A stretch of DNA of 16,040 bases from an uncultured archaeon (GTDB lineage Archaea; Asgardarchaeota; Thorarchaeia; Thorarchaeales; Thorarchaeaceae), in the NCBI GenBank assembly GCA_964590575.1, contig CAZPWM010000075.1:1-16040 (forward strand), given 5' to 3'. Positions 1 to 14,865 of this stretch are shown piece by piece. The position numbers were made by a program, and so were the translations under genes. How positions within the stretch are numbered: the first letter of the stretch is position 1; each line of letters begins with the position of its first letter. The notes under the pieces are model-generated. The model was not told the DNA's origin, searched no databases, and was given only the letters and a program-made list of their open reading frames with translations.

Positions 1-217
1 ATCGTGCATCAATCTCTGAAAATACAACCCCGGCTTCCTTAACCAAGGCTGCTCTCTCAAGGAGAAAAGGAACTGGATTCTTTTGTGAATCCATCAACCC
101 CATACGTCCATCCCAACTAATTGCTTCATCAATATTAAACAAGCGAGCTAGCGTATTGATTTCTGCTTTTGCTACAGTGATATTCTCACCAGATAGATAG
201 ACAAAGTATTTGGTCAA
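1..217 (-). CDS. Partial CDS (5' end only; runs off the window), probable tRNA (guanine(10)-N2)-methyltransferase Trm11/TrmG10, N-terminal region
   Basis: Manual translation from TTG at 217: MTKYFVYLSGENITVAKAEINTLARLFNIDEAISWDGRMGLMDSQKNPVPFLLERAALVKEAGVVFSEIDAR, open to the window edge. The YF.xLSGE...AxAE start resembles archaeal TrmG10 N-termini. It lies 7 bp downstream of the GPN GTPase stop. Absent from the supplied ORF track. Confidence 0.55.
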   Translation of the reverse strand, partial: MTKYFVYLSGENITVAKAEINTLARLFNIDEAISWDGRMGLMDSQKNPVPFLLERAALVKEAGVVFSEIDAR

Positions 218-224
218 ACAACAA

Positions 225-1004
225 TCACTCGTATAGGTTATCGCCACCAGAAAAGATACGCTGCATTTCACCATATAATGTATCGATTCCAGTCATCTCC
301 TTTGCTGAAACTGGTATATTACCTGTCGCAGTGTCTAGGGATTCAAGCATTTGCATAATTGCTCGTGAATACTCTGTCCGCAATCCTTCTGCAGAGGAGT
401 CAAGAGCCTCTTCAAGGAGATACAACTCTGAACCCCATCCCACAATCTCTTCTACTTCCTCAGTGGTTAGAATATCTGGCTTGCTCAAAACATTCAGCTG
501 TGGAAGACTAAATCGAATACTGATTGAGATTCCTAGGAGCGTCGATGAAAGATATCCTGAAGGAGTACGAGCAATATTTGAATCGAGCAAGTACAAAGAG
601 AGAGCTGGATCATCGCCTCTGAGACTAGACACCATCAAGGGCCCTGAGTTTCGATACGCAAAAAGTTCCATTTGTCCCGGACAATCTATGAGTATATAGT
701 CTCGGTCAGTATCAATAATCTCATCTCTTATATCATTGACACTACTAACTGCCATATCCAGTGAAGCAACAAGAGCTCCATTTGGGCCCAACCCAAATGA
801 GCTCATTACTTCTCCATAATCCACATACTCTCTAATATCAACATCACTTGTGTATGGTGGGGAGTCCACACCAGGGTCGAGATTGACAACAGTCACACTC
901 AAATCCGAACCTACAAGCCACTTCTCCAGTGATGCAGTGAGTAAGGACTTTCCTGAGCCTGCTGTACCAACTATAAATGTGAAAAACATCTGTAATACCG
1001 ACAT
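225..1004 (-). CDS. GPN-loop GTPase (archaeal GPN1/PAB0955 family)
   Basis: P-loop GTAGSGKS, VVNLDPG, signature GLGPNGAL, LIDCPGQMELF (G3), NVLSKPD (G4), IPVSA (G5). The true start could be the ATG at 989 (MFFTFIVG). Confidence 0.95.
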   Translation of the reverse strand: MSVLQMFFTFIVGTAGSGKSLLTASLEKWLVGSDLSVTVVNLDPGVDSPPYTSDVDIREYVDYGEVMSSFGLGPNGALVASLDMAVSSVNDIRDEIIDTDRDYILIDCPGQMELFAYRNSGPLMVSSLRGDDPALSLYLLDSNIARTPSGYLSSTLLGISISIRFSLPQLNVLSKPDILTTEEVEEIVGWGSELYLLEEALDSSAEGLRTEYSRAIMQMLESLDTATGNIPVSAKEMTGIDTLYGEMQRIFSGGDNLYE

Positions 1005-1048
1005 TAAGTTGTTGAAACAACCTCTTTGAGTTCTTCGGTACTATCACA

Positions 1049-1120
1049 ATTTAATACAAACCTATTCTTCTTCTATTAGCAATCAAAAGATTTCAAATCA
1101 GCACCTACGCAACTCTTATA
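1049..1120. promoter_or_regulatory. Divergent promoter region with TATA-like boxes for the GPN GTPase (minus strand, TATTAAAT ~1056-1049) and the HTH gene (plus strand, CTTATA ~1115-1120)
   Basis: AT-rich archaeal TATA-like motifs in a divergent intergenic gap. The plus-strand box is ~25 nt before ATG 1145, consistent with a nearly leaderless transcript. Confidence 0.4.
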
Positions 1121-1144
1121 GCGATTCTGAAGGGCAGAGAGTTT

Positions 1145-1888
1145 ATGGACAATAGTGAGGCACTTCGAAGGCTGGCAGAAGCAATGGCTGGTGAGATATG
1201 TCTCGCAGAAAATAATCCTGGTGCTGTTATGCGACGATGGCGTGAAAGATTTCACATTTCCCAGAAAACCCTCGCCAAATATCTTAAGGTTTCACCTTCT
1301 GTTATTAGTGACTATGAGAGCGGTAGACGGAAATCACCCCGGGTTGAAACCATCAAACGTTTTGTCGAAGGGCTGATTGAAATGGATGCTTCTGATGGTG
1401 GTAGGATTGCTATGGCACTGGAGAAATTAATCACCCCAGAAATCTCCTCTGATGCAATCCTAGATAGTCGTGAGTTTGGGGTTCCAATACCTGCACGGTT
1501 GCTTGTAGAACTTCTTGATTGCAAAGTCCTCACTCATCGTAATCTACTTGACAGGGACATTTATGGATACACAGCGCTTGACAGTATCAAGGCGATTATC
1601 AATTTGACCCCCCAACAACTTCTTCGGCTTTATGGGGGGACAACCCAACGCGCTGCTATTCTCACAAATGTTTCTACAGGTCGGTCACCAATGGTGGCTA
1701 TCAAAGCTAGTCAAATTGGTACCTCCGTTGCAGTAAAACCTGCTGTGGTGATACTCCAGGGAGTAAAAGAATTAGACCCACTTGCTGTACGAATAGCTGA
1801 TAGTATACACCTACCTTTATGTTTATCAGAAATAGAAACAGCTGATGAATTAATACGCGAAATTCGGTCGTTTGACCCTCAGATGTGA
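1145..1888 (+). CDS. Xre/HTH_3 family archaeal transcriptional regulator (COG1709-like) with C-terminal DRTGG-like domain
   Basis: AGEI...PGAVMRRWRERFHISQKTLAKYLKVSPSVISDYESGRRKSP helix-turn-helix. C-terminal IYGYTALDSIKAI, GGTTQRAAILTNVSTGRSPMVAIK and LDPLAVRIA match this conserved archaeal family. Confidence 0.9.
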   Translation: MDNSEALRRLAEAMAGEICLAENNPGAVMRRWRERFHISQKTLAKYLKVSPSVISDYESGRRKSPRVETIKRFVEGLIEMDASDGGRIAMALEKLITPEISSDAILDSREFGVPIPARLLVELLDCKVLTHRNLLDRDIYGYTALDSIKAIINLTPQQLLRLYGGTTQRAAILTNVSTGRSPMVAIKASQIGTSVAVKPAVVILQGVKELDPLAVRIADSIHLPLCLSEIETADELIREIRSFDPQM

Positions 1889-1910
1889 TTCTTGCTCAAG
1901 ATGGTGAAAA

Positions 1911-3209
1911 ATGATGAAGTTTACTATGGAGATTAACGACCCTGTCCATGGTTTCATAGGTATTACCGAAACTGAGGCAAAAATAATCGATTCACTACCC
2001 TATCAGAGATTACGACGAATCAAACAACTCTCAGGTGGCCACTTTGTTTACCCAACAGCTGAACACACACGTTTTGGTCACTGTATCGGTGTTATGTATC
2101 TTGCAGGACTTAGTGGTAGGAGACTTCTGAGCCAAATGGGTCTTGGGGACCAGAAGCTCCAAGAAGTAAGAATAGCTGGTCTTCTTCATGATATTGGCCA
2201 CGGTCCCTTTAGTCATGTCTTTGAGGAAGTACTCATAGAAAAACGTGGAATGAACCATGAGGATGTAACAGAGTGGTTAATCCTCAAGAGTGAGCTGGGT
2301 GATTTACTAGAAGCTGATGGAATCTCAAAAAACCGAATTGCTGATTTAGTTCGAGGCCGCCATAAGACCAAGAAGGATGCAATCATAGCTGGAATTGTTG
2401 CAGGACAAATTGACTCTGATAAGATGGACTACTTGATTCGGGACTCATTTTATTGTGGAGTAAATTACGGACTAGTTGATATCCATCGTCTAATTGATAG
2501 TATTGAAATCTCAAAGGACTACCAGATGTATTTTGATATCGCAGCAAGAGGGGCACTAGAATCATTTCTTGTAGCTAGATACGAAATGTTTCTCAATGTC
2601 TATTATCACAAAACAGTACGCAGTGTCGAAGTCATGTTAGTCAAATTAATTGATGCTGCAGATAAAATACTGGAACTTACCAGTTTTTCATCTCCTGAAG
2701 AGTTTTTAGAATTGGATGATATGTCACTCATATCCAGAGTTCGAAGCATAAATCCCTCAGATTCGGAGGATGCTAAAGAAGCGACAAAGATGGTCAATCT
2801 TCTTGATTCACGTACTCTTTACAAATCCGCCTTCGAAAAAGTCATTCATACACAAGATCGATTTGTTTCTAAGATTCTTACCAAAAGGAAAGTTCGCGAG
2901 AGCATCCAAGAAGAAATAGCTACCATTGCAGGAGTTAGTTGTGATGAGGTGATAGTTGATGTGCCCACATTGCCATCAGTACCATACAATCCACATCAAC
3001 TCAATCCGATGGAGATAGGAATTTTTGAAATTGTCGACGGAAAGAGAGTCCCTCATAATCTCTCAGAGTATTCCAATATTGCAGAAATGATGAAAACTTA
3101 CCTTGACGTCATTCGCGTGTATACATTTGACAAAAATCGAGTAAAAGTAGGGAGAGCTGCACGCGAAGTTTTCCAAGAAGTTCCTGATACTGCGCTGATA
3201 CACATGTGA
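1911..3209 (+). CDS. HD-domain phosphohydrolase, SAMHD1/COG1078-like putative dNTP triphosphohydrolase
   Basis: INDPVHGFI, QRLRRIKQL, VYPTAEHTRFGH, LLHDIGHGPFSH, DSDKMDYLIRD, ARYEMFLNVYYHKTVR. SD-like GGTGA at ~1903; 22 bp after the HTH gene. Confidence 0.92.
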   Translation: MMKFTMEINDPVHGFIGITETEAKIIDSLPYQRLRRIKQLSGGHFVYPTAEHTRFGHCIGVMYLAGLSGRRLLSQMGLGDQKLQEVRIAGLLHDIGHGPFSHVFEEVLIEKRGMNHEDVTEWLILKSELGDLLEADGISKNRIADLVRGRHKTKKDAIIAGIVAGQIDSDKMDYLIRDSFYCGVNYGLVDIHRLIDSIEISKDYQMYFDIAARGALESFLVARYEMFLNVYYHKTVRSVEVMLVKLIDAADKILELTSFSSPEEFLELDDMSLISRVRSINPSDSEDAKEATKMVNLLDSRTLYKSAFEKVIHTQDRFVSKILTKRKVRESIQEEIATIAGVSCDEVIVDVPTLPSVPYNPHQLNPMEIGIFEIVDGKRVPHNLSEYSNIAEMMKTYLDVIRVYTFDKNRVKVGRAAREVFQEVPDTALIHM

Positions 3210-3289
3210 TTGTATTTTCCCACCATATACTCTGATTTCAACTCAAACTTGGAAAGAAAATGTATGAAACATCAAATTCTGTGTGGTGG

Positions 3290-3296
3290 TTATATA
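3290..3296 (+). promoter_or_regulatory. TATA-like box (TTATATA) upstream of the roadblock/DENN-like/MglA unit
   Basis: Archaeal TATA consensus in a 139-bp intergenic gap, ~55 bp before TTG 3349, which is preceded by GGGGCTGAGGA. Confidence 0.5.
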
Positions 3297-3348
3297 GTCG
3301 CGACATGAATTCTACATTGAACCCAACCTTCCGCCTGGGGCTGAGGAC

Positions 3349-4296
3349 TTGAGCGACGAACTGACTGAAACCTTACAGAACATTAAGGCTATTACTGGCG
3401 TTGAGAATGTCGTTTTGATTCAAAAAGATGGACTCCCTGTAGCAAGCGCAGGAGTATGGTTCAGTAAGGATGAAGTCTTTGCAGTAGCATCATCAACCTG
3501 TGCCATTTTTGGTGTAGCTAAACTCATACATGGTGATTTCAAATATTTACTGATGGAGTCTGATACCTCTAAGGTCTTTCTTGCCTCTCTACCAAATGAC
3601 CCCGATTATTTCTTGACAGTGACAACTGCACCTCGGGTCAATCTAGCAGCATTATTCATTGAGATGAAAGACAATCTATCCAGACTATCATTCCTTCTTA
3701 GACAACATGTAGACGGAAGACTTCCCCCACTTCGATCCTATAGTCTTGATGAAACTCAGAAAGTGCTCCAAGGATTTGCTGTAGCTGAAGGTCGAGATAC
3801 AAGTTACGGCGTGACACGTTCCATGATTTCACTCGACCGTTCACAAGCACTTAGCCTCAGAGCGCTTCTACGCCAAGTTCATGACTGTATCCCAAATATT
3901 GGATCTGTATTTCTGTCGCTAAGTGGTGGAGTTCGAGTTTCATTGGAAGGATTCACCAATGATAGGCTAGCCGCAATGTCTTTTGCACTTCATGATGCAT
4001 CCGAACGAGTTGTACGAACATTAAGGAATAGTTCACTACAGACGGTTCTATGTGAAACCGAAGACACACGCCATTTCATTTATGCAGTTCCAAATGGTGT
4101 TTTCAGTTTGTGGGTGGACAGGGACAGTCAGAAACTTGGTCTTATGAGGCTTTTATTGAAACATTATATTGAGGAAATAAGGCGGGTCTTAGCAGCTGCA
4201 GCAGCGGTAAAACCTGCAGTTCCAGATGATTTGAAAGAATTACTATTGTCAGGTGGTTCTGATAGCGGCCTGATGTTAACGAGGAGAGAACCATGA
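3349..4296 (+). CDS. Tandem double Roadblock/LC7 (MglB/LAMTOR2-like) domain protein
   Basis: Domain 1 (aa ~1-117): LQNIKAITGVENVVLIQKDGLPVAS ... YFLTVTTAPRVNLAALFIEMK. Domain 2 (aa ~166-281): LLRQVHDCIPNIGSVFLSLSGG ... DRLAAMSFAL ... KLGLMRLLLK. TTG start. Confidence 0.85.
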   Translation: MSDELTETLQNIKAITGVENVVLIQKDGLPVASAGVWFSKDEVFAVASSTCAIFGVAKLIHGDFKYLLMESDTSKVFLASLPNDPDYFLTVTTAPRVNLAALFIEMKDNLSRLSFLLRQHVDGRLPPLRSYSLDETQKVLQGFAVAEGRDTSYGVTRSMISLDRSQALSLRALLRQVHDCIPNIGSVFLSLSGGVRVSLEGFTNDRLAAMSFALHDASERVVRTLRNSSLQTVLCETEDTRHFIYAVPNGVFSLWVDRDSQKLGLMRLLLKHYIEEIRRVLAAAAAVKPAVPDDLKELLLSGGSDSGLMLTRREP

Positions 4297-5213
4297 CATA
4301 TTCAATTATGAACCTAATCGAGTTGATGGGTGACCAATTCCCGCTTCTACTAAACTCAATATTAGAACGGATGCCAGTAATTGTCGCAGGTGAGGACATT
4401 GAACTAGTGGATGATATCACAGAGAGTCTAACCACTTTATGCCCACATCGACATAAACTAGTATTTTGGCGCGATTTCACGTCTGAAGCTGAAATTTTCT
4501 CAGTCTGGGAGGAAGAAAAACACAATTATGAAGTGAGTAGAACTATTGTTTGTGGGCTTTCCGGGAACCTTCGACTCGCTATGGATAGAATTTCTCGTTT
4601 TGCAGGTTGGATATTAGCTATCCCATTAGGCTTCACTGTTTTGGGAGTACAAGTAACTGAGAGCACTCTTCAAGATATGACTTCTCACATTCTCAAAAAC
4701 TCAAACAACTGTGGAATATTGAGGGTGAGTTCACCTTCGTCCATAACATTCTCACTTGTTAGACCGTCGAACAGTAGTCTTGAGGTTGAGAAGAAGATTG
4801 TAAATAAAATATTGATGCGAAAGAAACAATCTCTAGAGAGAATTAGACGACTTCTCACAAAATCACTACGTGGTCTCGATGTATCAAATCACATTCTGAC
4901 CGCAGTCCTCAAACTAGATGATGAGTCTGAGAAACTCACACAAGATGTTTTCGAGGAAGAGATAAACAACTATGTTCATGCAGCTCGTAGAGCAGTCACT
5001 CTATTGTCAAGAATCCGGTTGGCAAGGGAACTTGGTGCATCCACGACATTAACGGAACGAAATCTCTACGAGGCCATTGGATGGGATGGAGGAGAATTAC
5101 CAGATTTGATCCAGTTCATTAGAGCTGAGTGGCACGAAGATTTCTCTGATTGCGTTAAAAGTGGAGCATTGTCAGGACTTGGGGCTTGGGTAGACAGCAT
5201 GTGGGGTACATAA
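4293..5213 (+). CDS. Hypothetical protein with folliculin/DENN-core-like N-terminal alpha/beta region and helical C-terminus
   Basis: 306-aa ORF overlapping the upstream gene by ATGA. The N-terminal LMGDQFPLLLNSILERMPVIVAGEDIELVDDITESLTTLCP follows the helix-strand-helix-P pattern of cDENN/FLCN C-terminal domains. The coding call is solid; the fold call is by eye only. Confidence 0.6.
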   Translation: MTYSIMNLIELMGDQFPLLLNSILERMPVIVAGEDIELVDDITESLTTLCPHRHKLVFWRDFTSEAEIFSVWEEEKHNYEVSRTIVCGLSGNLRLAMDRISRFAGWILAIPLGFTVLGVQVTESTLQDMTSHILKNSNNCGILRVSSPSSITFSLVRPSNSSLEVEKKIVNKILMRKKQSLERIRRLLTKSLRGLDVSNHILTAVLKLDDESEKLTQDVFEEEINNYVHAARRAVTLLSRIRLARELGASTTLTERNLYEAIGWDGGELPDLIQFIRAEWHEDFSDCVKSGALSGLGAWVDSMWGT

Positions 5214-5227
5214 TAGGGGGTCAAAAA

Positions 5228-5809
5228 ATGATAATCGATTATGGTAATCGTACCGTGGGACTCAAAATCGTTTTCTTTGGACCTGCAATGAGTGGAAAAA
5301 CCACTTCGATTCGCTGGCTGTTTTCAACACTTGATTACGCTGAGAAGCTCACCTCAATAGAGAATACAGTGGGACGAACAATGTTTTGTGATTTTGGTAC
5401 AATTCCTTTTTCACTGAGCAGCAGCTGGACAATAAATGCGCATGTTTGGTCAGCTACCGGCCAAGATTTCTACAGATCAACACGTGAGGTAGTATTAGTC
5501 GGGGCTGATGGAGTGATTTTCATCGCAGACTCTCAAGAACATCTTCTTGACGAGAATCTGGCAAGCTGGAACGAGCTAATGTCAATGATTGAAGAGGAAG
5601 AGCGACCACTTCCATTAATTGTTTGTCTTAACAAACAAGACCTACCAAATGCGGTTCAAGAAGAACAGATTAGAACGCATCTGAAAATACCGATATCTGT
5701 GCCTGTCTTCAGGAGTGTGGCAAGAGAGGGTCACAATATCATGGAAGCTTTTCAATATCTTTTCCAAAACGCTATGCGTGCAAGTATACTTACTCAACCC
5801 GTTTCATGA
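5228..5809 (+). CDS. MglA-like small GTPase (Ras superfamily, Arf/Rag/MglA branch)
   Basis: MIIDYGNRTVGLKIVFFGPAMSGKTT (G1), RTMFCDF (G2, cf. MglA RTLFFDF), WSATGQ (G3 without Asp, cf. MglA YTVPGQ), GADGVIFIADSQ, NKQD (G4), SVA (G5). The start is placed at ATG 5228 after AGGGGGT rather than at 5186. Confidence 0.92.
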   Translation: MIIDYGNRTVGLKIVFFGPAMSGKTTSIRWLFSTLDYAEKLTSIENTVGRTMFCDFGTIPFSLSSSWTINAHVWSATGQDFYRSTREVVLVGADGVIFIADSQEHLLDENLASWNELMSMIEEEERPLPLIVCLNKQDLPNAVQEEQIRTHLKIPISVPVFRSVAREGHNIMEAFQYLFQNAMRASILTQPVS

Positions 5810-5847
5810 GCGCGAAACCTGCACATTGACAGATATCAAGCAAACCA

Positions 5848-5853
5848 TTTATA
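5848..5853 (+). promoter_or_regulatory. TATA-like box (TTTATA) upstream of pyrG
   Basis: Archaeal TATA-like motif in the gap between the GTPase and pyrG, preceded by an A-rich CAAGCAAACC stretch. Confidence 0.4.
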
Positions 5854-5927
5854 CGAACTGATACGACTTCAACCTCAGTTCCAGGTTGGGACAGTATACA
5901 TCTTCTCAAAATCAATTCTTGAGGTTC

Positions 5928-7613
5928 ATGCTATTGCTTTCAGAACAAGAAAAACCCAGTTTTGTCTTCATTACAGGGGGCGTGCTGTCTGGTATCGGAA
6001 AAGGAGTCACTACTGCTTCTATTGCGAAACTATTCCAATTCCGAGGGTATAACATTCGAATAATCAAGATTGACCCCTATCTAAACATTGATCCTGGTAC
6101 TCTGAATCCAATCGAACATGGAGAAGTCTTCGTAACAGACCAGACTTGGACATTCCAACCTGTCGCTGATTTTGAATTCAAAATCTCAGAGATTGACTTA
6201 GACTTTGGAACCTATGAACGATTTACTGGGTTGGAGGTTCACCCATCACAGAATATCACATCCGGGCAAATTTACATTTCAGTTATCCTTGAGGAGCGCA
6301 AAGGAGGATTTCTTGGACGGACTGTTCAAATCATCCCTCATATCACAGACAGAATCAAACAAAGGATTTGGGAGGTAGTGGAGAAGAAACCAATACCAGA
6401 TATTCTCCTAGTAGAAATAGGTGGTACCGTCGGTGATATTGAGGCGATGCCATTTCTAGAAGCTGTAAGACAGCTTGTTCGCGAACTAGGTCGAACCCGT
6501 ACTGCTGTTGTTCATGTCACTCTAGTGCCTTACATGAACTCAGTAGGTGAGTTCAAGACCAAACCGACACAGCATAGTGTTAGAACACTTCAAAGCTTAG
6601 GTCTCCAACCCGACATTATGATTTGCAGAGCAGATGAAAAACTTCCAGATACCGCTAAGGAGAAAATTGCTTTATTCTGCAATATTCCAGAAGAAAGAGT
6701 TGTTTCGAATCCTGATATTCCGGTGATATACCAGCTTCCTCTCTCATTTGAAGAGGAAGGACTTGGAAACATACTTGTTGAACACTTTGGACTAGAATCA
6801 AGAAAACCTGACACCGAAGTTTGGTCAAACATGGTACGATCCTTTGAAGATGTATCTGAAACAGTAGTAATTGCAATGCCCGGTAAATACACAACACTTG
6901 GCGACTCCTACAAAAGTATCAATCAAGCTTTAACACATGCTGCTGCTGCATGTGGGGCTAAAGTCGAGATACATTGGATTGAAACAGAAGAACGAAGCAC
7001 TGAAGAATGCCTTACAGAGGATTTGGCAGATGTGGATGGGGTTCTTCTAACACCGGGTTTCGGAGAACGTGGTGTTGAAGGAATGATTTGCGCTGCTTCA
7101 GTGACCCTAAAATCCATGATACCTCTTCTAGGCATTTGTTATGGCGCTCAACTCTCTACCGTTGCATTTGCTAGGAATGTTATGAGTTGGAAAGGCGCGA
7201 ATACCACGGAAGTAGATGTGGACAGCCTTTATCCTGTTGTAGACCTAATGGATGAACAAAAGCTAACAGACGATAAAGGTGGCACAATGCGTCTTGGTGG
7301 CCATGATGTACATATTGTAAAAGGAACACGATTACACGAAATCTATGGTACTGATATTGTCCATGAACGGTTTCGTCATAGATATCATCTAATTGACCGT
7401 TACTTGAAGAAGATGAATGAAATGGGTTTGAAGGTTTCAGCCCTTGACTCAACTGGTCGAATAATCAATGCAATTGAGCTCATCAATCATCCCTTTTGGA
7501 TTGGAGTACAATACCATCCCGAGTTCAAGTCCCGCCCAGACAACCCGCATCCACTTTACTTGGGTCTAATAAGAGCTGCACTAGAATACAAAAGGTTGAG
7601 AGTGAAAAAGTAG
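5928..7613 (+). CDS. pyrG: CTP synthase (glutamine-hydrolysing)
   Basis: FVFITGGVLSGIGKG, KIDPYLNIDPGTLNPIEHGEVFV, EIGGTVGDIE, KTKPTQHSV, PGFGERG, GICYGAQ (catalytic Cys), GGTMRLG, RHRY, QYHPEF (His-Glu). The start is probably ATG 5928 or TTG 5934 after GAGGT. Confidence 0.98.
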   Translation: MLLLSEQEKPSFVFITGGVLSGIGKGVTTASIAKLFQFRGYNIRIIKIDPYLNIDPGTLNPIEHGEVFVTDQTWTFQPVADFEFKISEIDLDFGTYERFTGLEVHPSQNITSGQIYISVILEERKGGFLGRTVQIIPHITDRIKQRIWEVVEKKPIPDILLVEIGGTVGDIEAMPFLEAVRQLVRELGRTRTAVVHVTLVPYMNSVGEFKTKPTQHSVRTLQSLGLQPDIMICRADEKLPDTAKEKIALFCNIPEERVVSNPDIPVIYQLPLSFEEEGLGNILVEHFGLESRKPDTEVWSNMVRSFEDVSETVVIAMPGKYTTLGDSYKSINQALTHAAAACGAKVEIHWIETEERSTEECLTEDLADVDGVLLTPGFGERGVEGMICAASVTLKSMIPLLGICYGAQLSTVAFARNVMSWKGANTTEVDVDSLYPVVDLMDEQKLTDDKGGTMRLGGHDVHIVKGTRLHEIYGTDIVHERFRHRYHLIDRYLKKMNEMGLKVSALDSTGRIINAIELINHPFWIGVQYHPEFKSRPDNPHPLYLGLIRAALEYKRLRVKK

Positions 7614-8776
7614 TGGAAAGAAACCTCGACAAGCTACTATCAAAATTGGTTGAAGAAATAGAACACATTGAGGTCACAAGAGAGCGATTTGGCGAGGTTC
7701 TCAGAAATGTTAGAAACAAAATTGATTTGGGCAAGTTTCCCGCTGTGGCTTCAAACATAATCGATAGACAGTTCTACACAAAAATTGAACCTACAAGTCT
7801 ATCAGGTCTTCGAATTGCTGGTATAGATGGTGGTCTAGTCAGAAAGCGATTCAAATCTATGGATTTAGTCTTGACAAGAGGGGTCGCAGTCATATTCCAA
7901 TTTGGGCCAGAAGATAGTCCAGTCGTTGACTTTTATCCTGACGCGTTTCCTGAACCAAAGATTAGTCCACTAATGCTAACATTATCCAGCATAGAGCTTG
8001 ACCAGCTCGCATCACTTGAACGAATTGCAGCTGAACTTAGAGTGACTCTGTCAGTTCTTGAAGAATTCCACACTGACTTAATCCTTCTTGACGGATCACT
8101 ATTCTACCATCCTCGAGACCGTCCCCAAACTGGTTCTATAGTGTATGAGAAGTTCCAAGAAGTATTATCCCTTTACAAACAACTCTATCATAAAGCTCGG
8201 AAGAAGGGTACTACTTTGGTAGGCATAGTCAAAGACAGCAGGTCAACACGAATTGCTACAATACTGGGTGAAATACTTCCACATATTGTCCGTGAACCGG
8301 CAGTCTTTGAGATGATGCAAGGTGTTGATTATAGGTGGTTACTCAAAATTTCTCGAGATTGTGACCTCCTCGATACATTCCTTGAAGAAGGGGAACGGTC
8401 CTTTGCATTTCGATATTCATCAGAACTTGCTTTCAATACAAACTCAATAAGCGATGATATCTCTGTTTGGGCATCCTCAATTTGGGTAACATATCTAAAA
8501 ACAGCAAGAGATGACCTACCGATAAGAATAGAATTTCTTTCGACTGAGGATGGTGACACTACTACGACAAAATTAGACAAGGCACTATCTGCAATACTCC
8601 CACTCTCTTCACAACATCCTGAATATGGTATTCCCACACCGATTCTTGAGGCTGATGCTCGTGCAAAGATAACTGCGAATGAAACACGGTTAATTATCGA
8701 TAGGCTCATGGCACTATCAGGACTTACCTATATGACACTTGAAAAAAGACGTTCACGAAACCCGTTTGGAGGTTGA
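7613..8776 (+). CDS. nurA: DNA double-strand break repair nuclease NurA
   Basis: IAGIDGG, LILLDGSL, VGIVKDSRS, IRIEF, YGIPTPILEADARAKI; directly upstream of herA. The start is placed at GTG 7613, overlapping the pyrG stop (TAGTG). Confidence 0.9.
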   Translation: MERNLDKLLSKLVEEIEHIEVTRERFGEVLRNVRNKIDLGKFPAVASNIIDRQFYTKIEPTSLSGLRIAGIDGGLVRKRFKSMDLVLTRGVAVIFQFGPEDSPVVDFYPDAFPEPKISPLMLTLSSIELDQLASLERIAAELRVTLSVLEEFHTDLILLDGSLFYHPRDRPQTGSIVYEKFQEVLSLYKQLYHKARKKGTTLVGIVKDSRSTRIATILGEILPHIVREPAVFEMMQGVDYRWLLKISRDCDLLDTFLEEGERSFAFRYSSELAFNTNSISDDISVWASSIWVTYLKTARDDLPIRIEFLSTEDGDTTTTKLDKALSAILPLSSQHPEYGIPTPILEADARAKITANETRLIIDRLMALSGLTYMTLEKRRSRNPFGG

Positions 8777-8779
8777 TTA

Positions 8780-10294
8780 ATGACTGAATTTCCAACAATC
8801 ACACGACTTGGCACTGTTGTTTCCACTGACTCTGGTCCTAACGTTATGGAATTCTCGTTCGTGCTCGAGGGTGGTCCTCGAGAGATAATTGCACGACGTG
8901 GTGAATTCATATCAATCGTGACTGATGCTGGAACTGTGATTGCCAGAGTTCAGGATCTCGTACGTACAAACCGTTACTATCAACATGCAGAAGCAGTTCG
9001 TGAATATCAATCAAGAGGCGAACCTCTACGGTCTATATTTCCTACTGATAGATGGCAATACACTGTTGCCAAGGCTCGAGTGTTAGGTATATGGAGTAAT
9101 GGTCGAACAATTCGACCATATTTCGCGGTTTCTCCGGGAGCTGTTGTTAGAATAGTCGATGAAGATGTTCTCGCTCGCTTCCTGAAGTTAGATTTAGAAA
9201 AAGGTCTTCATCTTGGTCAATTAGCATACCAGAACCTTCAGTTTACTCCATCGCTTGACAGCTTATTGTCTAAGCATCTAGCTATACTAGCAATGAGTGG
9301 AGCAGGGAAATCATACTTTGTATCTGTTCTTTTGGAGGAGCTACTCTCCCGACCAAAAGATAGAGGTCGACTCTCTGTGGTTGTTATTGATGTACACGGC
9401 GAGTATACATATCTGAAAGATGTAACCACAGAAGCGCTTGGAATATCAAAAGGACAATTCGAAGTAGAACATATACGTGGATCGCACTTTCAGATTCCCG
9501 TTCAGATGCTCTCTGCAGAAGCGATAGGTGCTCTTGTTTCCGATATGAGCTCAATTCAAGTCCGCGATTTACGACGAGTAGTATCTGAGATGAAGAATAT
9601 ACTGAAAGAAGGATACACGTTATCGGATATCGTAGAATATGTACAAAATGACGAAAAAATTAGCAAGAATACACGCGAAGCACTTTCTGGTTGGTTGATT
9701 AACCTTGATGAAACAGGTCTTTTTGGCAAGGAAGCCGCTCCAAATCTTAAGACTATTGTAAGACCGGGAAAAATTGCACTGGTCGATCTTAGTGATTTCA
9801 TCAGTCTCAAGAAGAAACAGATTATAGTGTCGTACTTGGCTAACGAACTTCTTTATCTGCGGAGACGTGAAGTAATCCCGCCATTCTTACTGGTTCTCGA
9901 AGAAGCACATCAGTTTTGTCCAGAGAGCCGGCATGAGCTTGCTTTGCCAAAGAGTCGTATCGAAACAATTGCACGAGAAGGTAGAAAATTCCATGCTCTT
10001 CTTTGTTTGATATCCCAAAGACCTGTGAAACTCTCCACAACGGTTCTGAGTCAATGTAGCAACCAAGCGATATTTAGATGTACAAACCCGTATGATTTAG
10101 ATCATATTGGTAAATCAAGTGAAGGGATCGACCGGGCATCCTTGGATGCAATCACCACCCTCGAGATTGGAGAATCACTATTTGTTGGTGAAACAGTATC
10201 AGTTCCCACATTTGTGAAAATTCGCCAACGGAAATTTGAGCCAACTGGTTCAATCAAGAACTTGTCTGAGGCTGTAAAGAAGTCCGATAAATGA
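8780..10294 (+). CDS. herA: HerA/FtsK-family bipolar DNA helicase/ATPase with N-terminal HAS barrel
   Basis: N-terminal LGTVVS...RRGEFISI barrel. KHLAILAMSGAGKS (Walker A), VVVIDVHGEY, LLVLEEAHQF (Walker B), IAREGRKF, ISQRP. 3 bp after nurA. Confidence 0.93.
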   Translation: MTEFPTITRLGTVVSTDSGPNVMEFSFVLEGGPREIIARRGEFISIVTDAGTVIARVQDLVRTNRYYQHAEAVREYQSRGEPLRSIFPTDRWQYTVAKARVLGIWSNGRTIRPYFAVSPGAVVRIVDEDVLARFLKLDLEKGLHLGQLAYQNLQFTPSLDSLLSKHLAILAMSGAGKSYFVSVLLEELLSRPKDRGRLSVVVIDVHGEYTYLKDVTTEALGISKGQFEVEHIRGSHFQIPVQMLSAEAIGALVSDMSSIQVRDLRRVVSEMKNILKEGYTLSDIVEYVQNDEKISKNTREALSGWLINLDETGLFGKEAAPNLKTIVRPGKIALVDLSDFISLKKKQIIVSYLANELLYLRRREVIPPFLLVLEEAHQFCPESRHELALPKSRIETIAREGRKFHALLCLISQRPVKLSTTVLSQCSNQAIFRCTNPYDLDHIGKSSEGIDRASLDAITTLEIGESLFVGETVSVPTFVKIRQRKFEPTGSIKNLSEAVKKSDK

Positions 10295-10377
10295 TGTCCC
10301 TCCCAGTAATCCTGATAAGACGAAAGAATGGTGTTCCACTCGGGAAAGATAAAAAATGAATCGGGGGTTCTAATCAA

Positions 10378-10944
10378 TTGTCCGATGAAGAACTAAACGA
10401 GATAAAACAACTAATTGATTCAATGCAGTCAAACCTCGTAGAGCTTTTTGATCAACTCCGTGAATTACGTAGTCGTCTGAACATTGTTTCAAATATGACA
10501 TCAGAAACAACTCCATCTATTCTTCCACTGTTCTCTGAAGTCAAGGCACCAAACTCAGATGCACCTGGCACGACATCAAAATCCCTTGTTGAAGATGAAG
10601 AACTTAGCACCACCATTATAGAAAACGAGACGCCTAGTGATATGATGATACCCGAAGATCAGGAGGGCGGAAACAGTGCAAAAGTGAATCGGGTTCTTGA
10701 TCCAATCGCCCATGAACTGCGTACTGGAGAGGCTCCTGCAGAGATAATTTATGAATATTTACAAGCTGCAAGAGAATACCTAATTGATGATGATGACGGT
10801 GAGTCTAAAAAAGGGAAAGTTGCCAGAGATATGGATATTGTCCTTAATTTTTTGAAGGCTCGGGGTAAAAGAACAATTCGTCCAGATGAACGTGATAATA
10901 TCCTGAAAAGAATACGTCGTTGGAAAGCTCATTTAACAGTATAA
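10378..10944 (+). CDS. Hypothetical protein (N-terminal coiled coil, acidic S/T/E/P-rich linker, helical C-terminal domain)
   Basis: 188-aa ORF filling the gap, with a TTG start after GGGGGT and a protein-like composition. No family recognised. Confidence 0.75.
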   Translation: MSDEELNEIKQLIDSMQSNLVELFDQLRELRSRLNIVSNMTSETTPSILPLFSEVKAPNSDAPGTTSKSLVEDEELSTTIIENETPSDMMIPEDQEGGNSAKVNRVLDPIAHELRTGEAPAEIIYEYLQAAREYLIDDDDGESKKGKVARDMDIVLNFLKARGKRTIRPDERDNILKRIRRWKAHLTV

Positions 10945-10995
10945 TCTTGCTCTCCAACTGACTAACTTCTAAATAGTCATTATTGACCAAAAGAA

Positions 10996-11277
10996 TTATT
11001 CTAAGTCAATGATGATACGCTTTATCTTGGTCCATGAAATCTTCTTGAGACCGTGCTGGCCAGGTTCGTACCTACAATCCAGTAAATCTGCTTCTTTCAG
11101 AATCTTAATCTGGGCGCTAGCATTAGCCTCAGTTCCACCGAGGTGTCTAGCTACTCGTGTCACGTCTTTCTCTCCTTGAAGCAAAATCTTCAGTATTTTT
11201 AGTCGAGTTCCTGATGATAGAGCGCGTCCAATTCGTAGTATTGCGTCGTCGTTATTGATTTCAAGTGTTTCGGACAG
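10996..11277 (-). CDS. ArsR-type winged-helix transcriptional regulator (~93 aa)
   Basis: GRALSSGTRLKILKILL, DVTRVARHLGGTEANASAQIKILKEADLL, wing YEPGQHGLKKI. The supplied 153-aa ORF overlaps the divergent gene and crosses the promoter; the likely start is CTG 11277 after GAGGTG. Confidence 0.85.
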   Translation of the reverse strand: MSETLEINNDDAILRIGRALSSGTRLKILKILLQGEKDVTRVARHLGGTEANASAQIKILKEADLLDCRYEPGQHGLKKISWTKIKRIIIDLE

Positions 11278-11321
11278 TTTGTTACACCTCGAATGAGTGT
11301 TGCGTGGTTGCTCAAGCAGGG

Positions 11322-11331
11322 CTTTATTATA
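11322..11331. promoter_or_regulatory. TATA-like element between the divergent ArsR and DUF460 genes
   Basis: Reads TATAATAAAG on the minus strand, ~45 bp before the proposed ArsR start, and CTTTATTATA on the plus strand. Confidence 0.45.
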
Positions 11332-11431
11332 GTTGTTGTTTGAGGATGGTCTAGACAGCAATAGTGCAAGATTGAACCAACAAATAGGTTCATAGGTTTT
11401 CTCTGATTCACTTGGATGAGCGCTGAGCCTT

Positions 11432-13453
11432 ATGGATAATGATGGCGTATTCATCATAGGTTTTGATATACTTCCTTCTCATAGTGCAAGTTCTAAGAGT
11501 GCCCCTAAATTTGCTTGCGTCATTACTAGAAACGAGATAGTTCTGAATGAATACCCTGAAATATCTAGAGGCGCACTACTGAAACTTGTTCGTGAGGTTT
11601 CTCCCAAGTGGCTCTGTACCGACAATATCTTTGAAATAGTCCCAGATACAAAATCACTCTTTCATCTCGTGGATAGAATTCCACCAGAAACCAGAATTGT
11701 TCAAGTCACTGGAGTGCCACCTCACCAAACACCTCTCAAGATACTGGCAAAACGTCACGGTTTAATTGCTCGAGGCAAACCTAACCCTCTTGAATCAGCC
11801 CATATAGCTGCAAAGTTGGTTTCTAGAGGTATTGGTTATTCACTAGAGTGCTTTGGAGAGCAGACGGAAATCAAGGTGACTCGAGGTCGCAAACCTGGAC
11901 GCGGTGGACAGAGTGCAAATAGATATCGTCGCAGAGTTCACTCACAAATCCAACAGATGACCCGTTTCATAGAATCCACGTTAAAAGCTGCAGAAATCGA
12001 GTATGATCTTGACATTCGTGCATCTGATTTTGGCTATGCTAGCGCAAGGCTTGTTACATATGCACCTTTACCAGCCGTTCGTAGTCTTGTTGAAACAAAA
12101 CGTGGGGGCGACTTCAACATAATTATCTCCCCAGTTCGAAAAAGAGTTGAGTTTCTTTCTCTCGAACCTCGTCCTGTAGTATCGGATTTGAAACCGAAGT
12201 ATTTCATTTTGGGTATCGATCCTGGGACCACGGCCGCATATTGTCTTCTATCATTGAATGGAAAAATCCGTGAACTGAGAAGTAAAAAGGGACTTACAAG
12301 AGCAGATATCATTAGAGAAGTATATGAAAAGGGAATTCCCGTAATCGTGGCTTCAGATGTGCCTCAGGTTCCTCACTTTGTCGAGAAAATTGCAAGTACA
12401 GTGAATGCTCCTATTTTCACTCCCAATAAACCAATTGCGGTTTCAAGTAAACAAGAACTAGCTCGTGACTATAGTAGCGAGATGAAAATTCGTAACGCTC
12501 ATGAACGAGATGCATTGACAGCTGCGGTCTATACGTACAAGAGTCTCCTTCCGAAATTTCAACAGATTGACAGAATGATCCTTGATGAGCAGATATCAGT
12601 TGACCGTAATTACCTAAAGGCTTTGGTGATTAAGGGGTCTTCAATCAACGAAGCTTTAGCCAAGATAGAGAGTGAGGAATCAGAACCAATAGAGAGTATT
12701 CCAGAACAACCAGCGACTGAAGAAGAATCTTTGACTCAAGAACGATATGACTCACTAAAAGCGAAAACCGCGCAATTGGAATCGGAAAACAGACTGCTAG
12801 GTGAAAAGATTGAGGACTTGCAGCGATTTGTAGAATATCTGAAATTTAGAGAGAGTGAGCTTTCAGACAGTCTCGAGATTGTCAGTCGTGAGAACCACTG
12901 GAAAATCAAACGAGATCGTGAAGTGGAAAAAACCAAATTCACGTTGAAAAAAACGCAACGTGAAGCAGATTCACTTAAAGAACAAGTAGACACTCTAAGT
13001 AGACGGCTTGAACGCTTAACGGGAGTAAAACGTCTAGAAATGCGTGGAGACATGCTTGCAGTCAAAGTAATTCCCCACTTCACACGTGAGAGTATCGAGG
13101 ATTTCATCAAGAAAGTAGGCCTAAAAAGTGGTGATGTTGTTCTCTTTGAGGATGCATCAGGAGGAGGTCCACAGACTGCTGGAATATTGATAGATCGAGA
13201 GATACGGGCCGTCGTTGTAGATACGCCGCTTTCCCATCTCCCGCAAGATGAACTGATTAAGGCACTCATACCAGTCGTAGATGCTAAACAAGTTGAACTT
13301 CAAAGAGTTGACGAATTTGCATTCATAAGTCGAGGGAAGTTCGACCAACAACTCCAATCATTCATTCGGACTGTACGTGAACAAGCTAGACAAAAGGGAG
13401 AAGAACAACTTGTAGAGTTAGTGGAACGATACCGTCGCGAGATTGAGCGATAG
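11432..13453 (+). CDS. DUF460/COG2433 family protein (predicted RNase H-fold nuclease domain plus long coiled coil)
   Basis: N-terminal IIGFDI...LCTDNIFEI...IVQVTG; central ILGIDPGTTAAYCLLSLNG, PVIVASDV, NAHERDALTAA; heptad-rich coiled coil at aa ~435-535; C-terminal GDVVLFEDASGGG. Confidence 0.88.
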   Translation: MDNDGVFIIGFDILPSHSASSKSAPKFACVITRNEIVLNEYPEISRGALLKLVREVSPKWLCTDNIFEIVPDTKSLFHLVDRIPPETRIVQVTGVPPHQTPLKILAKRHGLIARGKPNPLESAHIAAKLVSRGIGYSLECFGEQTEIKVTRGRKPGRGGQSANRYRRRVHSQIQQMTRFIESTLKAAEIEYDLDIRASDFGYASARLVTYAPLPAVRSLVETKRGGDFNIIISPVRKRVEFLSLEPRPVVSDLKPKYFILGIDPGTTAAYCLLSLNGKIRELRSKKGLTRADIIREVYEKGIPVIVASDVPQVPHFVEKIASTVNAPIFTPNKPIAVSSKQELARDYSSEMKIRNAHERDALTAAVYTYKSLLPKFQQIDRMILDEQISVDRNYLKALVIKGSSINEALAKIESEESEPIESIPEQPATEEESLTQERYDSLKAKTAQLESENRLLGEKIEDLQRFVEYLKFRESELSDSLEIVSRENHWKIKRDREVEKTKFTLKKTQREADSLKEQVDTLSRRLERLTGVKRLEMRGDMLAVKVIPHFTRESIEDFIKKVGLKSGDVVLFEDASGGGPQTAGILIDREIRAVVVDTPLSHLPQDELIKALIPVVDAKQVELQRVDEFAFISRGKFDQQLQSFIRTVREQARQKGEEQLVELVERYRREIER

Positions 13454-13498
13454 ATTTCCCTTAGATGATGACTCGACTCCAAGATTGCTGGAATCTGA

Positions 13499-13726
13499 CT
13501 ATTCAGGAATCTGAATCCACAGAATATTGTTACCTCTTATCAGAATTTGGCCATACTTGGCTCTGATTTCTTCATTTTCAAGTTCTTCAGCGTCTGCAAG
13601 TGTGAGGTTCATATATATGTCACATCTAGTTAAGCGCCCTCGAAAGATTCTCTGGTCTTTCAATTTTATCGAAACAATATCATTGAGTTGGTCTTCTAGG
13701 GCTTTTATTGGCATTTTCTCAGGCAC
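13499..13726 (-). CDS. Sm-like archaeal protein (SmAP/Lsm)
   Basis: Sm1 motif VSIKLKDQRIFRGRLTRCDIYMNLTLADAEE and Sm2 motif YGQILIRGNNILWI. The start is either GTG 13726 (6 nt after GAGGTG) or GTG 13735 (leaderless). Confidence 0.93.
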   Translation of the reverse strand: MPEKMPIKALEDQLNDIVSIKLKDQRIFRGRLTRCDIYMNLTLADAEELENEEIRAKYGQILIRGNNILWIQIPE

Positions 13727-13760
13727 TCGGGGCACCTCTCAAAAGAGGCCTTCTAAGTAT

Positions 13761-13768
13761 ATTATAAA
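13761..13768 (-). promoter_or_regulatory. TATA box (TTTATAAT) for the Sm-like gene
   Basis: Strong archaeal TATA match ~26-35 bp upstream of the candidate start codons. Confidence 0.55.
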
Positions 13769-13873
13769 GCCTTTGCTAGATAACGTTGTATCTCTATATG
13801 GTCCAAACGTAAGAGTCAACTGGTGATGAAACACACGATTTATCCAGAACATAACATTTCAGGTAAGTGAAAG

Positions 13874-14860
13874 ATGACACTATACTGTCTTGGAATTGAA
13901 GGAACCGCTCACTCATTTGGTGCTGGAGTTGTGACCAGTGAAGGTAAGGTTCTTTCAAATGAATGGGATATGCTTAAACCGGCTCAAGGTGGGATTCATC
14001 CACGTGAAGCTAGTCGTCATCATTCAGAGCTTGGTCCAGGAATAATCAAAGAAGCTGTTAAGAAGGCAGGTCTTGATTTTCATGAAATTAATCTCATTGC
14101 TTTCTCTCAGGGTCCTGGATTGGGTCCATGCCTAAGAACCACTGCAACAATTGCCAGAACTCTTTCTCTCAAACTAGAAACTCCTCTTGTTGGTGTCAAT
14201 CATTGTGTTGCTCATATCGAGATTGGTTGTCTAGAATCCAATTTCAATGATCCCGTGACCGTGTACGTATCTGGTGGGAACACACAAATCATTGCTTTTG
14301 CGGGTGGTCGATTCAGGACTTTTGGTGAAACCCTAGACATTGCGATTGGAAACATGTTAGATGTACTTGGTCGCGAGCTGGGGATGGGCTTTCCTAGTGG
14401 ACCAATTGTTGAAGAAGAAGCAAAGAACGGTAGACAGTATCATAGTTTACCTTACTCGGTAAAGGGAATGGACCTGAGCTACTCTGGTATGCTTACAGCT
14501 GCAAAAAAACTTCATTCAGAAGGTGTTCCCATTCCTGACATTTGTTTTAGTGTACAAGAAACCTCATTTGGAATGCTAGCAGAAATTGCAGAACGAGCAA
14601 TAGCACATACTAAGAAGAATGAGCTACTTCTGACAGGTGGTGTCGCTCGAAATAATCGCCTCACCGAAATATTATCAGGTGTTGCAGAAAGACACGACGC
14701 ACGGTTTCATCGAGTTTCTCCGTCCTTGGCTGGAGATCAAGGTGCGATGATAGCTTGGAATGGTATTCTCCAATATAATACAGGTCATGAAACTAAAGTC
14801 GAGAACTCTCATGTACTACCGAAATGGCGTACTGACGACCAAGATATATTGTGGAGGTAG
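13874..14860 (+). CDS. kae1: tRNA N6-adenosine threonylcarbamoyltransferase Kae1 (KEOPS)
   Basis: LGIEGTAHSFG, GGIHPREASRHH, AFSQGPGLGPCL, VNHCVAHIEIG (metal-binding His pair), YVSGGNTQ, GETLDIAIGN, LPYSVKGMDLS, TGGVARN, GDQGAMIA. Confidence 0.97.
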   Translation: MTLYCLGIEGTAHSFGAGVVTSEGKVLSNEWDMLKPAQGGIHPREASRHHSELGPGIIKEAVKKAGLDFHEINLIAFSQGPGLGPCLRTTATIARTLSLKLETPLVGVNHCVAHIEIGCLESNFNDPVTVYVSGGNTQIIAFAGGRFRTFGETLDIAIGNMLDVLGRELGMGFPSGPIVEEEAKNGRQYHSLPYSVKGMDLSYSGMLTAAKKLHSEGVPIPDICFSVQETSFGMLAEIAERAIAHTKKNELLLTGGVARNNRLTEILSGVAERHDARFHRVSPSLAGDQGAMIAWNGILQYNTGHETKVENSHVLPKWRTDDQDILWR

Positions 14861-14865
14861 CTAGT

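Follow-up and report, generated by a model that had tools for sequence, protein, structure and literature searches.

A stretch of 16,040 nucleotides (nt) from an uncultured archaeon of the Thorarchaeaceae (Asgardarchaeota; assembly GCA_964590575.1, contig CAZPWM010000075.1, positions 1 to 16,040 of the forward strand; this whole stretch is referred to as the window) contains three co-oriented genes whose products probably make up a single Asgard switch module, self-contained and centred on a small GTPase. In this reading, which is given a probability of about 0.7, an MglA-type GTPase would be the switch, a protein with two fused roadblock domains would be its platform, and a protein resembling DENN-domain proteins would be a second regulator. 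The operon is real and deeply conserved, and it has already been described in silico: Liu et al. predicted an operon of this kind, with the same three parts, namely a Roadblock (LAMTOR1-like) protein, a small GTPase, and a DENN-domain protein (bioRxiv 10.1101/2020.10.19.343400, Fig. 5b; Nature 2021). Thus, the novelty of composition implied in an earlier note on this DNA does not hold. The three genes are:

3349 to 4296, plus strand: gene 1, tandem roadblock protein, 315 amino acids (aa), TTG start.
4293 to 5213, plus strand: gene 2, DENN-like protein lacking a longin, 306 aa.
5228 to 5809, plus strand: gene 3, MglA-family small GTPase, 193 aa, ATG start.

The layout is as the earlier note had described it. 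The ATGA at 4293-4296 both starts gene 2 and stops gene 1, and genes 2 and 3 are separated by 14 nt (5214-5227). A mechanical list of open reading frames (ORFs) places the start of gene 3 at 5186; the ATG at 5228 agrees with the starts of its orthologues. At the position equivalent to the TTG start of gene 1, Thor-type loci have TTG, GTG or ATG. The trio sits between a gene for an HD phosphohydrolase and the gene for CTP synthase.

Conservation of the trio was assessed in one scan of species-representative genomes with gene 2. The scan was seeded by a four-sequence alignment and two peptide patterns, which reached metagenome-assembled genomes (MAGs) labelled Thor, Hermod, Baldr, and Odin. It gave 71 loci whose relatives of gene 2 are 26-95% identical to it. 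Of these, 53 are Thor-type (L001-L052 and L065); the submitters of the 18 others labelled them Hermod-, Baldr-, Odin- or Promethearchaeota. In 71 of 71 loci gene 2 is followed directly, on its own strand, by a GTPase gene like gene 3 (P0003-like), which starts 3-23 nt after it. A tandem roadblock gene like gene 1 (P0001-like) lies directly upstream in 68 of the 71 loci as scored by script, and in all 69 loci that can be judged: in L030 the roadblock gene, 81% identical over 230 aa, is broken by a masked run of Ns and was counted as the 69th, and the sequences of L047 and L069 start within gene 2. With start codons refined, genes 1 and 2 overlap by 4 nt in 61 of the 68 loci, and the other seven pairs lie within 26 nt. 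The earlier note's proposal had depended in part on the middle gene keeping its place beside the other two in relatives, and the trio is indeed intact in every locus that can be judged.

The surroundings of the trio are less constant. Six genes that flank it in Thor-type loci (those for GPN GTPase, helix-turn-helix (HTH) protein, HD phosphohydrolase, CTP synthase, NurA, and HerA) are each present in 40-46 of the 71 loci, and none of the six is found in any of the 18 non-Thor-type loci. Three other contexts occur there. In one, a histone deacetylase gene lies upstream, and genes for eS26, a PadR protein, and a CDP-alcohol phosphatidyltransferase lie downstream; in the second, FtsZ is upstream and fumarase subunits are downstream; the third is seen in L066. 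Comparison of these non-Thor-type flanks found no further conserved gene accompanying the trio. Across the lineage groups, identity is 25-37% for the roadblock and DENN-like proteins and 42-54% for the GTPases. Because the 18 non-Thor-type loci keep the trio amid unrelated flanks, the three genes have been kept together across a deep divergence that reshuffled everything around them. The pairwise identities of the three proteins are correlated (r = 0.96-0.97), but this was set aside as evidence of co-evolution, since shared descent suffices to explain it.

Some individual loci deserve mention. L006, L018, L020, L022, L065, and L048, all Thor-type, have no CTP synthase-NurA-HerA block downstream of the trio, and in L048 a GPN GTPase gene takes its place; within the Thor type, the 3' flank is rearranged while the trio is intact. 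The 5-kb contig of L056 (CAZWON010000051.1), titled 'uncultured Planctomycetia bacterium', carries an Asgard trio and Baldr-type downstream genes and is probably mis-binned. Other submitters' labels also disagree with the grouping of the loci: the Hermodarchaeota label of L035 contrasts with its Thor-type sequence (77% identity), the Hermod-type group takes in L064 (labelled Thor) and L067 (labelled Odin), and L054, also labelled Odin, falls in with the Baldr-type loci.

Predicted expression signals frame the trio, as the earlier note had proposed, and lie also within it:

3281 to 3296, plus strand: predicted archaeal promoter (from alignment), comprising the TATA box TTATATA at 3290-3296 and a G-rich stretch at 3281-3289 resembling a B recognition element (BRE).
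3337 to 3340, plus strand: Shine-Dalgarno-like GGGG, which most relatives have as GGAG, in near-invariant G columns; the TTG start of gene 1 follows after about 8 nt.
5216 to 5222, plus strand: Shine-Dalgarno-like AGGGGGT in the 14-nt gap ahead of gene 3 (sequence read).
5848 to 5854, plus strand: TATA box TTTATAC of the next unit (CTP synthase), the 3' limit of the trio (from alignment).

Among 12 Thor-type loci aligned over the 150 nt upstream of gene 1, 11 have precisely TTATATA and the remaining one TTAAATA. The stretch directly 5' of this box, GTGTGGWGR, is conserved as well, as is a GGRG that precedes the start by about 8 nt; the rest of the upstream region has diverged, and little else in it is conserved. 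A promoter function for 3281-3296 is predicted from this conservation and from its location some 53 nt ahead of the start codon, and GGGG and AGGGGGT would act as Shine-Dalgarno sequences for genes 1 and 3, respectively. The downstream box, TTTATAC, is exact in 6 of 10 aligned Thor-type loci; three differ at one position and one at two, and the TTA core is present in all 10. No oligo-T terminator is visible between gene 3 and this box (5810-5847). As far as sequence can tell, the signals of the trio, that is the TATA boxes and the start position, exceed chance.

The earlier note had named the three products a double roadblock protein, a folliculin/DENN-like protein, and an MglA-type GTPase. 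All three names stand, the second at moderate scores. For gene 3, Pfam gives only general similarity to Arf, Ras, and Roc. In a phmmer search of the PDB, however, four MglA entries lead with E values from 3.2e-29 (3t12) to 2.4e-28, versus 2.7e-9 for the best non-MglA entry, Arf1. A profile of 24 orthologues places MglA (7.3e-42) still farther ahead of the best Rab (Rab11B, 1.9e-14) and aligns with MglA over its full length (positions 3-183 of 192), the N-terminal strand included. Gene 3 has GPAMSGKT as its G1 motif, GRT with R50 in switch I, SATGQ, with no Asp, as G3, and NKQD as G4. These motifs, G-R-T included, are invariant in 24 of 24 orthologues, position 1 of G3 being S or T. In HMMER alignments the R-T of gene 3 pairs with the R-T of Thermus thermophilus and Myxococcus xanthus MglA, and S-A-T-G-Q aligns with T-V-P-G-Q of MglA, so that a hydroxyl residue is kept in first place and Ala-Thr replaces Val-Pro.

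Group 1 MglA proteins are reported to have an intrinsic arginine finger next to the conserved G2 threonine, and their G3 motif is TVPGQ (GTPGQ in Groups 2-5) instead of DxxGQ (PMC4316618). The G3 of gene 3 (S/T-A-T-G-Q) matches neither form. Taken together, the gap between the MglA and other matches, the pairing of the R-T residues, and the distinct G3 mark gene 3, by its sequence, as an MglA that has the catalytic arrangement of Group 1 and its own form of G3. Group 1 was reported only from Bacteria in a 2014 survey (PMC4316618), and both MglA1 and the MglA2-5 groups have since been recorded in Asgard genomes (bioRxiv 10.1101/2024.02.28.582541). A Rag-type GTPase was ruled out for gene 3, which at 193 aa is a single G domain of MglA type; its Pfam match to Gtr1_RagA is marginal (22.5 bits versus a cut-off of 22) and far weaker than its Arf or Ras matches. 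The matches listed in the homologue search with gene 3 are only Thor-type close relatives.

The product of gene 1 consists of two roadblock domains in one chain:

About aa 1 to 120 (nt 3349 to 3708), plus strand: roadblock domain 1 (AlphaFold2 (AF2), Pfam, profile).
aa 121 to 163, plus strand: linker, with PPLR at aa 126-129 (nt 3724 to 3735); low AF2 confidence.
About aa 164 to 282 (nt 3838 to 4194), plus strand: roadblock domain 2 (AF2, profile).
After aa 282, plus strand: C-terminal tail, disordered (AF2).

Pfam Robl_LC7 matches gene 1 above its cut-off (1e-10) and matches 22 of 24 orthologues. The AF2 model (predicted local distance difference test (pLDDT) 78.6, predicted template modelling score (pTM) 0.76) contains two alpha-beta-beta-alpha-beta-beta-beta-alpha units. 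Foldseek gives 102 PDB matches at E values at or below 1e-3, with target-normalised TM-scores (TMt) of 0.74-0.85 to solved roadblock proteins. The lead match is the roadblock homodimer 9jue of MK-D1 (E 1.2e-6, TMt 0.85), and the other best matches include a Streptomyces roadblock protein, LAMTOR2 (6ehr_B, 6b9x_B), the Thorarchaeota roadblock protein 7f8m, and MglB (6h5b_B, 3t1s, 1j3w); chains of Mon1 and Ccz1 align across both units. In a profile search against the PDB, unit 1 (positions 3-113) finds 7f8m at 3.4e-6 and unit 2 (positions 167-285) finds 9jue at 4.2e-6, with MglB weak at 0.025-0.04. The Pfam families MAPKK1_Int (LAMTOR3) and LAMTOR5 match 5 and 2 of the 24 orthologues, respectively.

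Unit 1 is better conserved than unit 2. Its beta1-beta2 loop contains an invariant Q-x-D-G-x-P, a general roadblock feature, and the same loop in unit 2 has G-G. In the linker, both prolines of P-P-L-R are invariant and the Leu and Arg near-invariant across the 24 orthologues (26-35% identity between lineages), and this conservation makes P-P-L-R a candidate docking or catalytic element. Only two Arg residues of gene 1 are near-invariant: R129, which belongs to the linker, and R267, which lies in a helix. An Arg finger of the kind that Avl9-type DENN GTPase-activating proteins (GAPs) have was considered for the beta4-beta5 loops of its roadblock domains and dropped, because neither the alignment nor the AF2 model shows one. 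MglB proper is a homodimer of single roadblock proteins, and gene 1 is instead a covalent tandem of two unlike domains. By analogy, it would be the one-chain equivalent of an MglB dimer or of the LAMTOR2/3 heterodimer.

Gene 2 is the least familiar of the three. No Pfam or NCBIfam family matches it, and its relatives are named only 'hypothetical protein' in their sources. It is a small family, with 228 clusters at 90% identity among the candidates scored and, from 1.84 billion proteins, 66 representatives at 50% identity. Almost every member has a length of about 290-310 aa; a 1725-aa representative, P0181, was rejected as a spurious relative, since it is an immunoglobulin (Ig)-repeat protein. 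Two domains are predicted:

About aa 1 to 160 (nt 4293 to 4772), plus strand: alpha/beta cDENN-like domain (AF2, Foldseek).
About aa 164 to 303 (nt 4782 to 5201), plus strand: helical dDENN-like domain (AF2).

The AF2 model, made with 36 relatives (pLDDT 89.5, pTM 0.85), has strands at 29-33, 54-58, 84-88, 106-111, 141-147, and 150-155, and then helices over 164-303. The first five Foldseek matches are all chains of folliculin (E 1.8e-3 to 7.3e-3, probability 0.98-1.00), with a TMt of up to 0.54 against the C-terminal domain of FLCN (3v42). Beyond folliculin, the matches include DENND10, DENND1B (3tw8_C), DENND1A (6ekk_B), and 7mge_C, a chain of the C9orf72:SMCR8:WDR41-ARF1 entry. Among 36 relatives of gene 2, the Pfam models Folliculin_C and DENN match below threshold in two (best 4.8e-4) and one, respectively; these matches are co-linear from the N-terminus, beginning at residue 5-9. 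Whole-protein language-model neighbours independently point the same way: nearly all of those with names carry a DENN-superfamily Pfam domain (C9orf72-like, Folliculin_C/SMCR8_C, SPA, DENND11 or Avl9), the exception being Njmu-R1. Nearly all named neighbours of residues 1-162 alone are likewise DENN-superfamily members, and neither set includes an AAA+ protein. The family alignment contains no Walker A motif.

On these grounds (the folliculin fold ranks, the sub-threshold Pfam matches, the language-model neighbours, and the lack of a Walker A motif) gene 2 is best read as a DENN-like protein made up of a cDENN and a dDENN, with its closest likeness in the C-terminal halves of folliculin-type proteins, although the scores are moderate. 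In a DENN module, an N-terminal longin domain (uDENN) is part of the same chain (PMC3521125). The gene 2 product has none, and its chain opens directly with the cDENN-like helix and strand. Its invariant residues include R26, P28, R53, R83, and E211, and no catalytic signature is recognised among them.

How the three proteins would work together can be proposed by analogy. The gene 3 protein would be the switch, cycling between GTP and GDP forms and using its own catalytic residues, R50 and Q79. In bacteria, one MglA is bound per MglB dimer, and MglB acts by positioning the intrinsic Arg finger of MglA (PMC4316618). By homology, the gene 1 pseudo-dimer would most likely be a platform that binds one GTPase, 1:1, and would most likely speed GTP hydrolysis by positioning R50 and Q79, as MglB does. 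The gene 2 protein would then most likely be a second regulator, and this is the weakest step. It might be an exchange factor that grips the GTPase at its switch regions, as the cDENN of DENND1B does on Rab35, or it might be a partner that docks on the roadblock platform, giving a split regulator resembling a DENN module. DENN proteins are reported to act either as GEFs (guanine nucleotide exchange factors) or as GAPs, and in the GAPs the catalytic Arg resides in the longin domain and the cDENN binds the switch regions (bioRxiv 10.64898/2026.01.05.697756; PMC12290439).

Several observations weigh against this proposal. The catalytic Arg of the eukaryotic DENN-family GAPs belongs to the very domain, the longin, that gene 2 is without, and neither roadblock domain of gene 1 has an invariant Arg in its strands or loops, judging from the 24-orthologue alignment and the AF2 model. 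The fold evidence for gene 2 is modest: no PDB match reaches an E value of 1e-3, the query-normalised TM-scores are 0.32-0.41, and from Foldseek rank 6 onward lid-containing AAA+ ATPases are interleaved with the DENN proteins, at lower probability. The best relative scores 20.2 bits with Folliculin_C against a cut-off of 27, and 13.1 bits with DENN against 23.4, and these profile matches cover only the first 50-60 residues. Finally, the synteny count covers contexts in Thor-, Hermod-, Baldr- and Odin-labelled MAGs, not those of Loki-, Heimdall- and Hel-type genomes, and most of the 66 family representatives, roughly 40, are less than 40% identical to any locus in the synteny set.

The alternative that survives best, although it is unlikely, assigns both regulators to hydrolysis: the proteins of genes 1 and 2 would form a composite GAP like FLCN-FNIP, split over two chains, and the operon would encode no exchange factor. 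The best fold matches of gene 2 are to folliculin, which works in GAP complexes with longin platforms (PMC12290439). The roadblock and longin folds are related, and an origin from MglB-like domains has been proposed for the longin of DENN modules (PMC3521125). The 4-nt overlap that recurs in 61 of 68 loci, which would couple the translation of genes 1 and 2, also favours this alternative. However, MglA has its own Arg finger, so that in bacteria the roadblock dimer alone suffices (PMC4316618), and no fused form of the gene 2 family, either roadblock-DENN or longin-DENN, was found in a search among longer proteins, which is weak evidence; the sole long representative matched is the Ig-repeat protein.

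A role for gene 2 outside the nucleotide cycle, as an effector or a localisation scaffold that binds the GTP form of MglA and passes the signal on, is less probable again. A precedent comes from Myxococcus, where RomRX, long held to be a GEF, is now reported to be an effector of MglA-GTP, with MglB bifunctional (PMC13408092), and the want of a recognisable catalytic signature in gene 2, whose R26, P28, R83, and E211 have no assigned role, would suit such a protein. Set against this, the characterised DENN-superfamily proteins are all described as GEFs or GAPs (PMC12290439; bioRxiv 10.64898/2026.01.05.697756; PMC3521125). The strict co-inheritance of the three genes fits a core regulatory set, but is compatible with an effector too.

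It is improbable that gene 2 is a degenerate P-loop or AAA+-like domain with a helical lid, its likeness to the C-terminal part of FLCN being convergent or too remote to matter. RavA, clamp-loader subunits, ClpB, and Vps4 are indeed common from Foldseek rank 6 (E 8e-3 to 9e-2), and a profile search of PDB sequences with the gene 2 family finds no DENN protein, only ferritin-type chance matches at E values of 0.004 or more. Yet folliculin holds ranks 1-5 at a probability of 0.98-1.00 versus 0.13-0.63 for the AAA+ proteins, and the other signs (no Walker A motif, sub-threshold Pfam matches that are to Folliculin_C and DENN and are co-linear at the N-terminus, and named language-model neighbours that, Njmu-R1 apart, belong to the DENN superfamily and never to AAA+) agree with it. 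Last, it is scarcely credible that the three genes are neighbours by descent only, without a functional link: flanks are conserved within Thor-type loci as well, so synteny there proves nothing, but the trio is present in all 18 non-Thor-type loci, with 0 of 6 Thor-type flanks and in three other contexts, its overlaps or gaps are at most 26 nt throughout, and conserved predicted promoters are found only before gene 1 and after gene 3.

The trio can be set beside several known systems. One is the bacterial mglB-mglA pair of T. thermophilus and M. xanthus, in which a roadblock gene likewise lies upstream of the gene for an MglA-family GTPase in one operon. Gene 3 also shares with bacterial MglA the intrinsic Arg beside the G2 Thr and a G3 without Asp. 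Unlike that pair, the trio has its roadblock units fused, where MglB is a homodimer, and has a DENN-like gene inserted between the two; and the G3 of gene 3 is S-A-T-G-Q, not the T-V-P-G-Q of Group 1 MglA.

Among eukaryotic systems, FLCN-FNIP and C9orf72-SMCR8 combine a platform of roadblock/longin type with a small GTPase, as the trio does, and gene 2 resembles their C-terminal DENN-type domains in fold and in language-model features. These GAPs are reported to carry a catalytic arginine finger and a GP motif on the longin domain that faces the GTPase (PMC12290439). The trio, in contrast, has no longin in its DENN-like chain and no identifiable Arg finger in its platform; its GTPase is of MglA type, not Rag or Arf; it consists of three small separate proteins; and no LAMTOR1-like anchor is seen. 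The GEFs DENND1A/B and the Avl9-family GAPs share with gene 2 an alpha/beta cDENN followed by a helical dDENN, but they have an N-terminal longin (uDENN) in the chain, and their match scores are weaker than those of folliculin. Gene 1 is comparable to the LAMTOR2/3 and LAMTOR4/5 pairs of Ragulator in being a pseudo-heterodimer of two unlike roadblock domains, and LAMTOR2 is among its best fold matches; however, unlike Ragulator-Rag, the trio includes no roadblock-bearing Rag GTPase and no LAMTOR1 wrap, and nothing points to a lysosome-like membrane. Thus, the earlier note's description of the operon as built from Rag/Ragulator-type parts is good as analogy only, since the GTPase is not Rag-like and neither a LAMTOR1 nor a longin component is present.

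The trio is very likely the operon of Liu et al., who describe it as conserved among most Asgard archaea and liken it to FLCN/Ragulator; they call the GTPase 'Rab-like', not of the Rag family, and propose a GEF role (bioRxiv 10.1101/2020.10.19.343400). Copies of gene 2 that are 94-95% identical occur in the original Thorarchaeota genomes SMTZ1-45 and AB_25 (L009 and L007, respectively). The two accounts differ in that the GTPase is here clearly of the MglA family, and in that the text of the preprint, so far as it covers the operon, is silent on a tandem roadblock and on a DENN protein without a longin. Tran et al. solved structures of roadblock and Rab-like proteins from Thor and Loki archaea, and report that the GTPase genes of MK-D1 are generally not in operons with roadblock or longin genes (PMC10933270). 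A 2025 survey ties Asgard longin proteins of FLCN/SMCR8 type, which are a different set, to the eukaryotic longin GAPs (PMC12290439). A Thorarchaeota pair resembling MglA and MglB, with a roadblock dimer, was modelled in a 2026 paper, and the portion of that paper concerned with it mentions no DENN gene (PMC13408092). In the literature from 2021 on, no paper on an Asgard DENN-domain GTPase operon was found, and within the accessible literature on Asgard or archaeal DENN, folliculin, roadblock, MglA/MglB, and SMCR8/C9orf72 no experimental study of the trio was found.

The origin of DENN proteins offers one further, tentative interpretation, against which the odds still lie. Zhang et al. proposed that the longin of the DENN module derives from MglB-like GAPs of MglA-like GTPases and that the module grew by accretion (PMC3521125). 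The trio might then be an unfused, pre-eukaryotic DENN module on its original client, in which an MglA-type GTPase with its intrinsic Arg finger is governed jointly by an MglB-like roadblock platform, the forerunner of longin/uDENN, and by a cDENN-dDENN protein on a chain of its own. None of the texts consulted makes this connection. The MglA identity of gene 3, the fused roadblock of gene 1, and the longin-less DENN protein of gene 2 would together fit the scenario of Zhang et al., and the operon would be the unfused stage.

The rest of the window contains archaeal housekeeping genes, and the window's proteins have their nearest relatives under a Thorarchaeota label. Upstream of the trio are genes for a GPN-loop GTPase (225-1004, minus strand), an HTH protein, and the HD phosphohydrolase; the others encode CTP synthase, NurA, HerA, an ArsR-type regulator, a DUF460 protein, Kae1, Bud32, and ribosomal protein uS15. 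The stop codon of CTP synthase, TAG at 7611-7613, shares one base with the GTG at 7613-7615, a codon in the reading frame of NurA. NurA begins at 7496 in the mechanical ORF list, but in relatives it starts exactly at the CTP synthase stop (5639-7321 and 7321-8484 in L001); therefore CTP synthase, NurA, and HerA look like one tightly coupled unit. A 188-aa ORF at 10378-10944 has no Pfam family. Between the NurA-HerA pair and the gene for the 673-aa DUF460 protein (11432-13453) lies the divergent gene for the ArsR-type regulator (10996-11457, minus strand). An unannotated ORF of 99 aa (13527-13826) is found just upstream of Kae1. Kae1 (13874-14860) and the Bud32 kinase (14851-15492), a KEOPS pair, are separate genes here, with a 10-nt overlap; in some archaea the two are fused.

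In eukaryotes, GTPases with roadblock/longin and DENN regulators organise membrane traffic and nutrient signalling, as in Rag-Ragulator-FLCN, C9orf72-SMCR8, and Rab-DENN. The operon sets three such kinds of parts together in a prokaryote, as small, soluble-looking proteins. To the account of Liu et al. the present analysis may add that the GTPase is of MglA type and has an intrinsic Arg finger, that the roadblock protein is a pseudo-dimer fused into one chain, and that the DENN protein has no longin; the remaining value of the system lies in its biochemistry and in these refinements. Most Asgard GTPases cannot be matched to their regulators by genome layout (PMC10933270), whereas here the partners are fixed by gene order. 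The trio is thus a test bed for what a DENN domain does without a longin, and for whether such regulators began as controllers of MglA.

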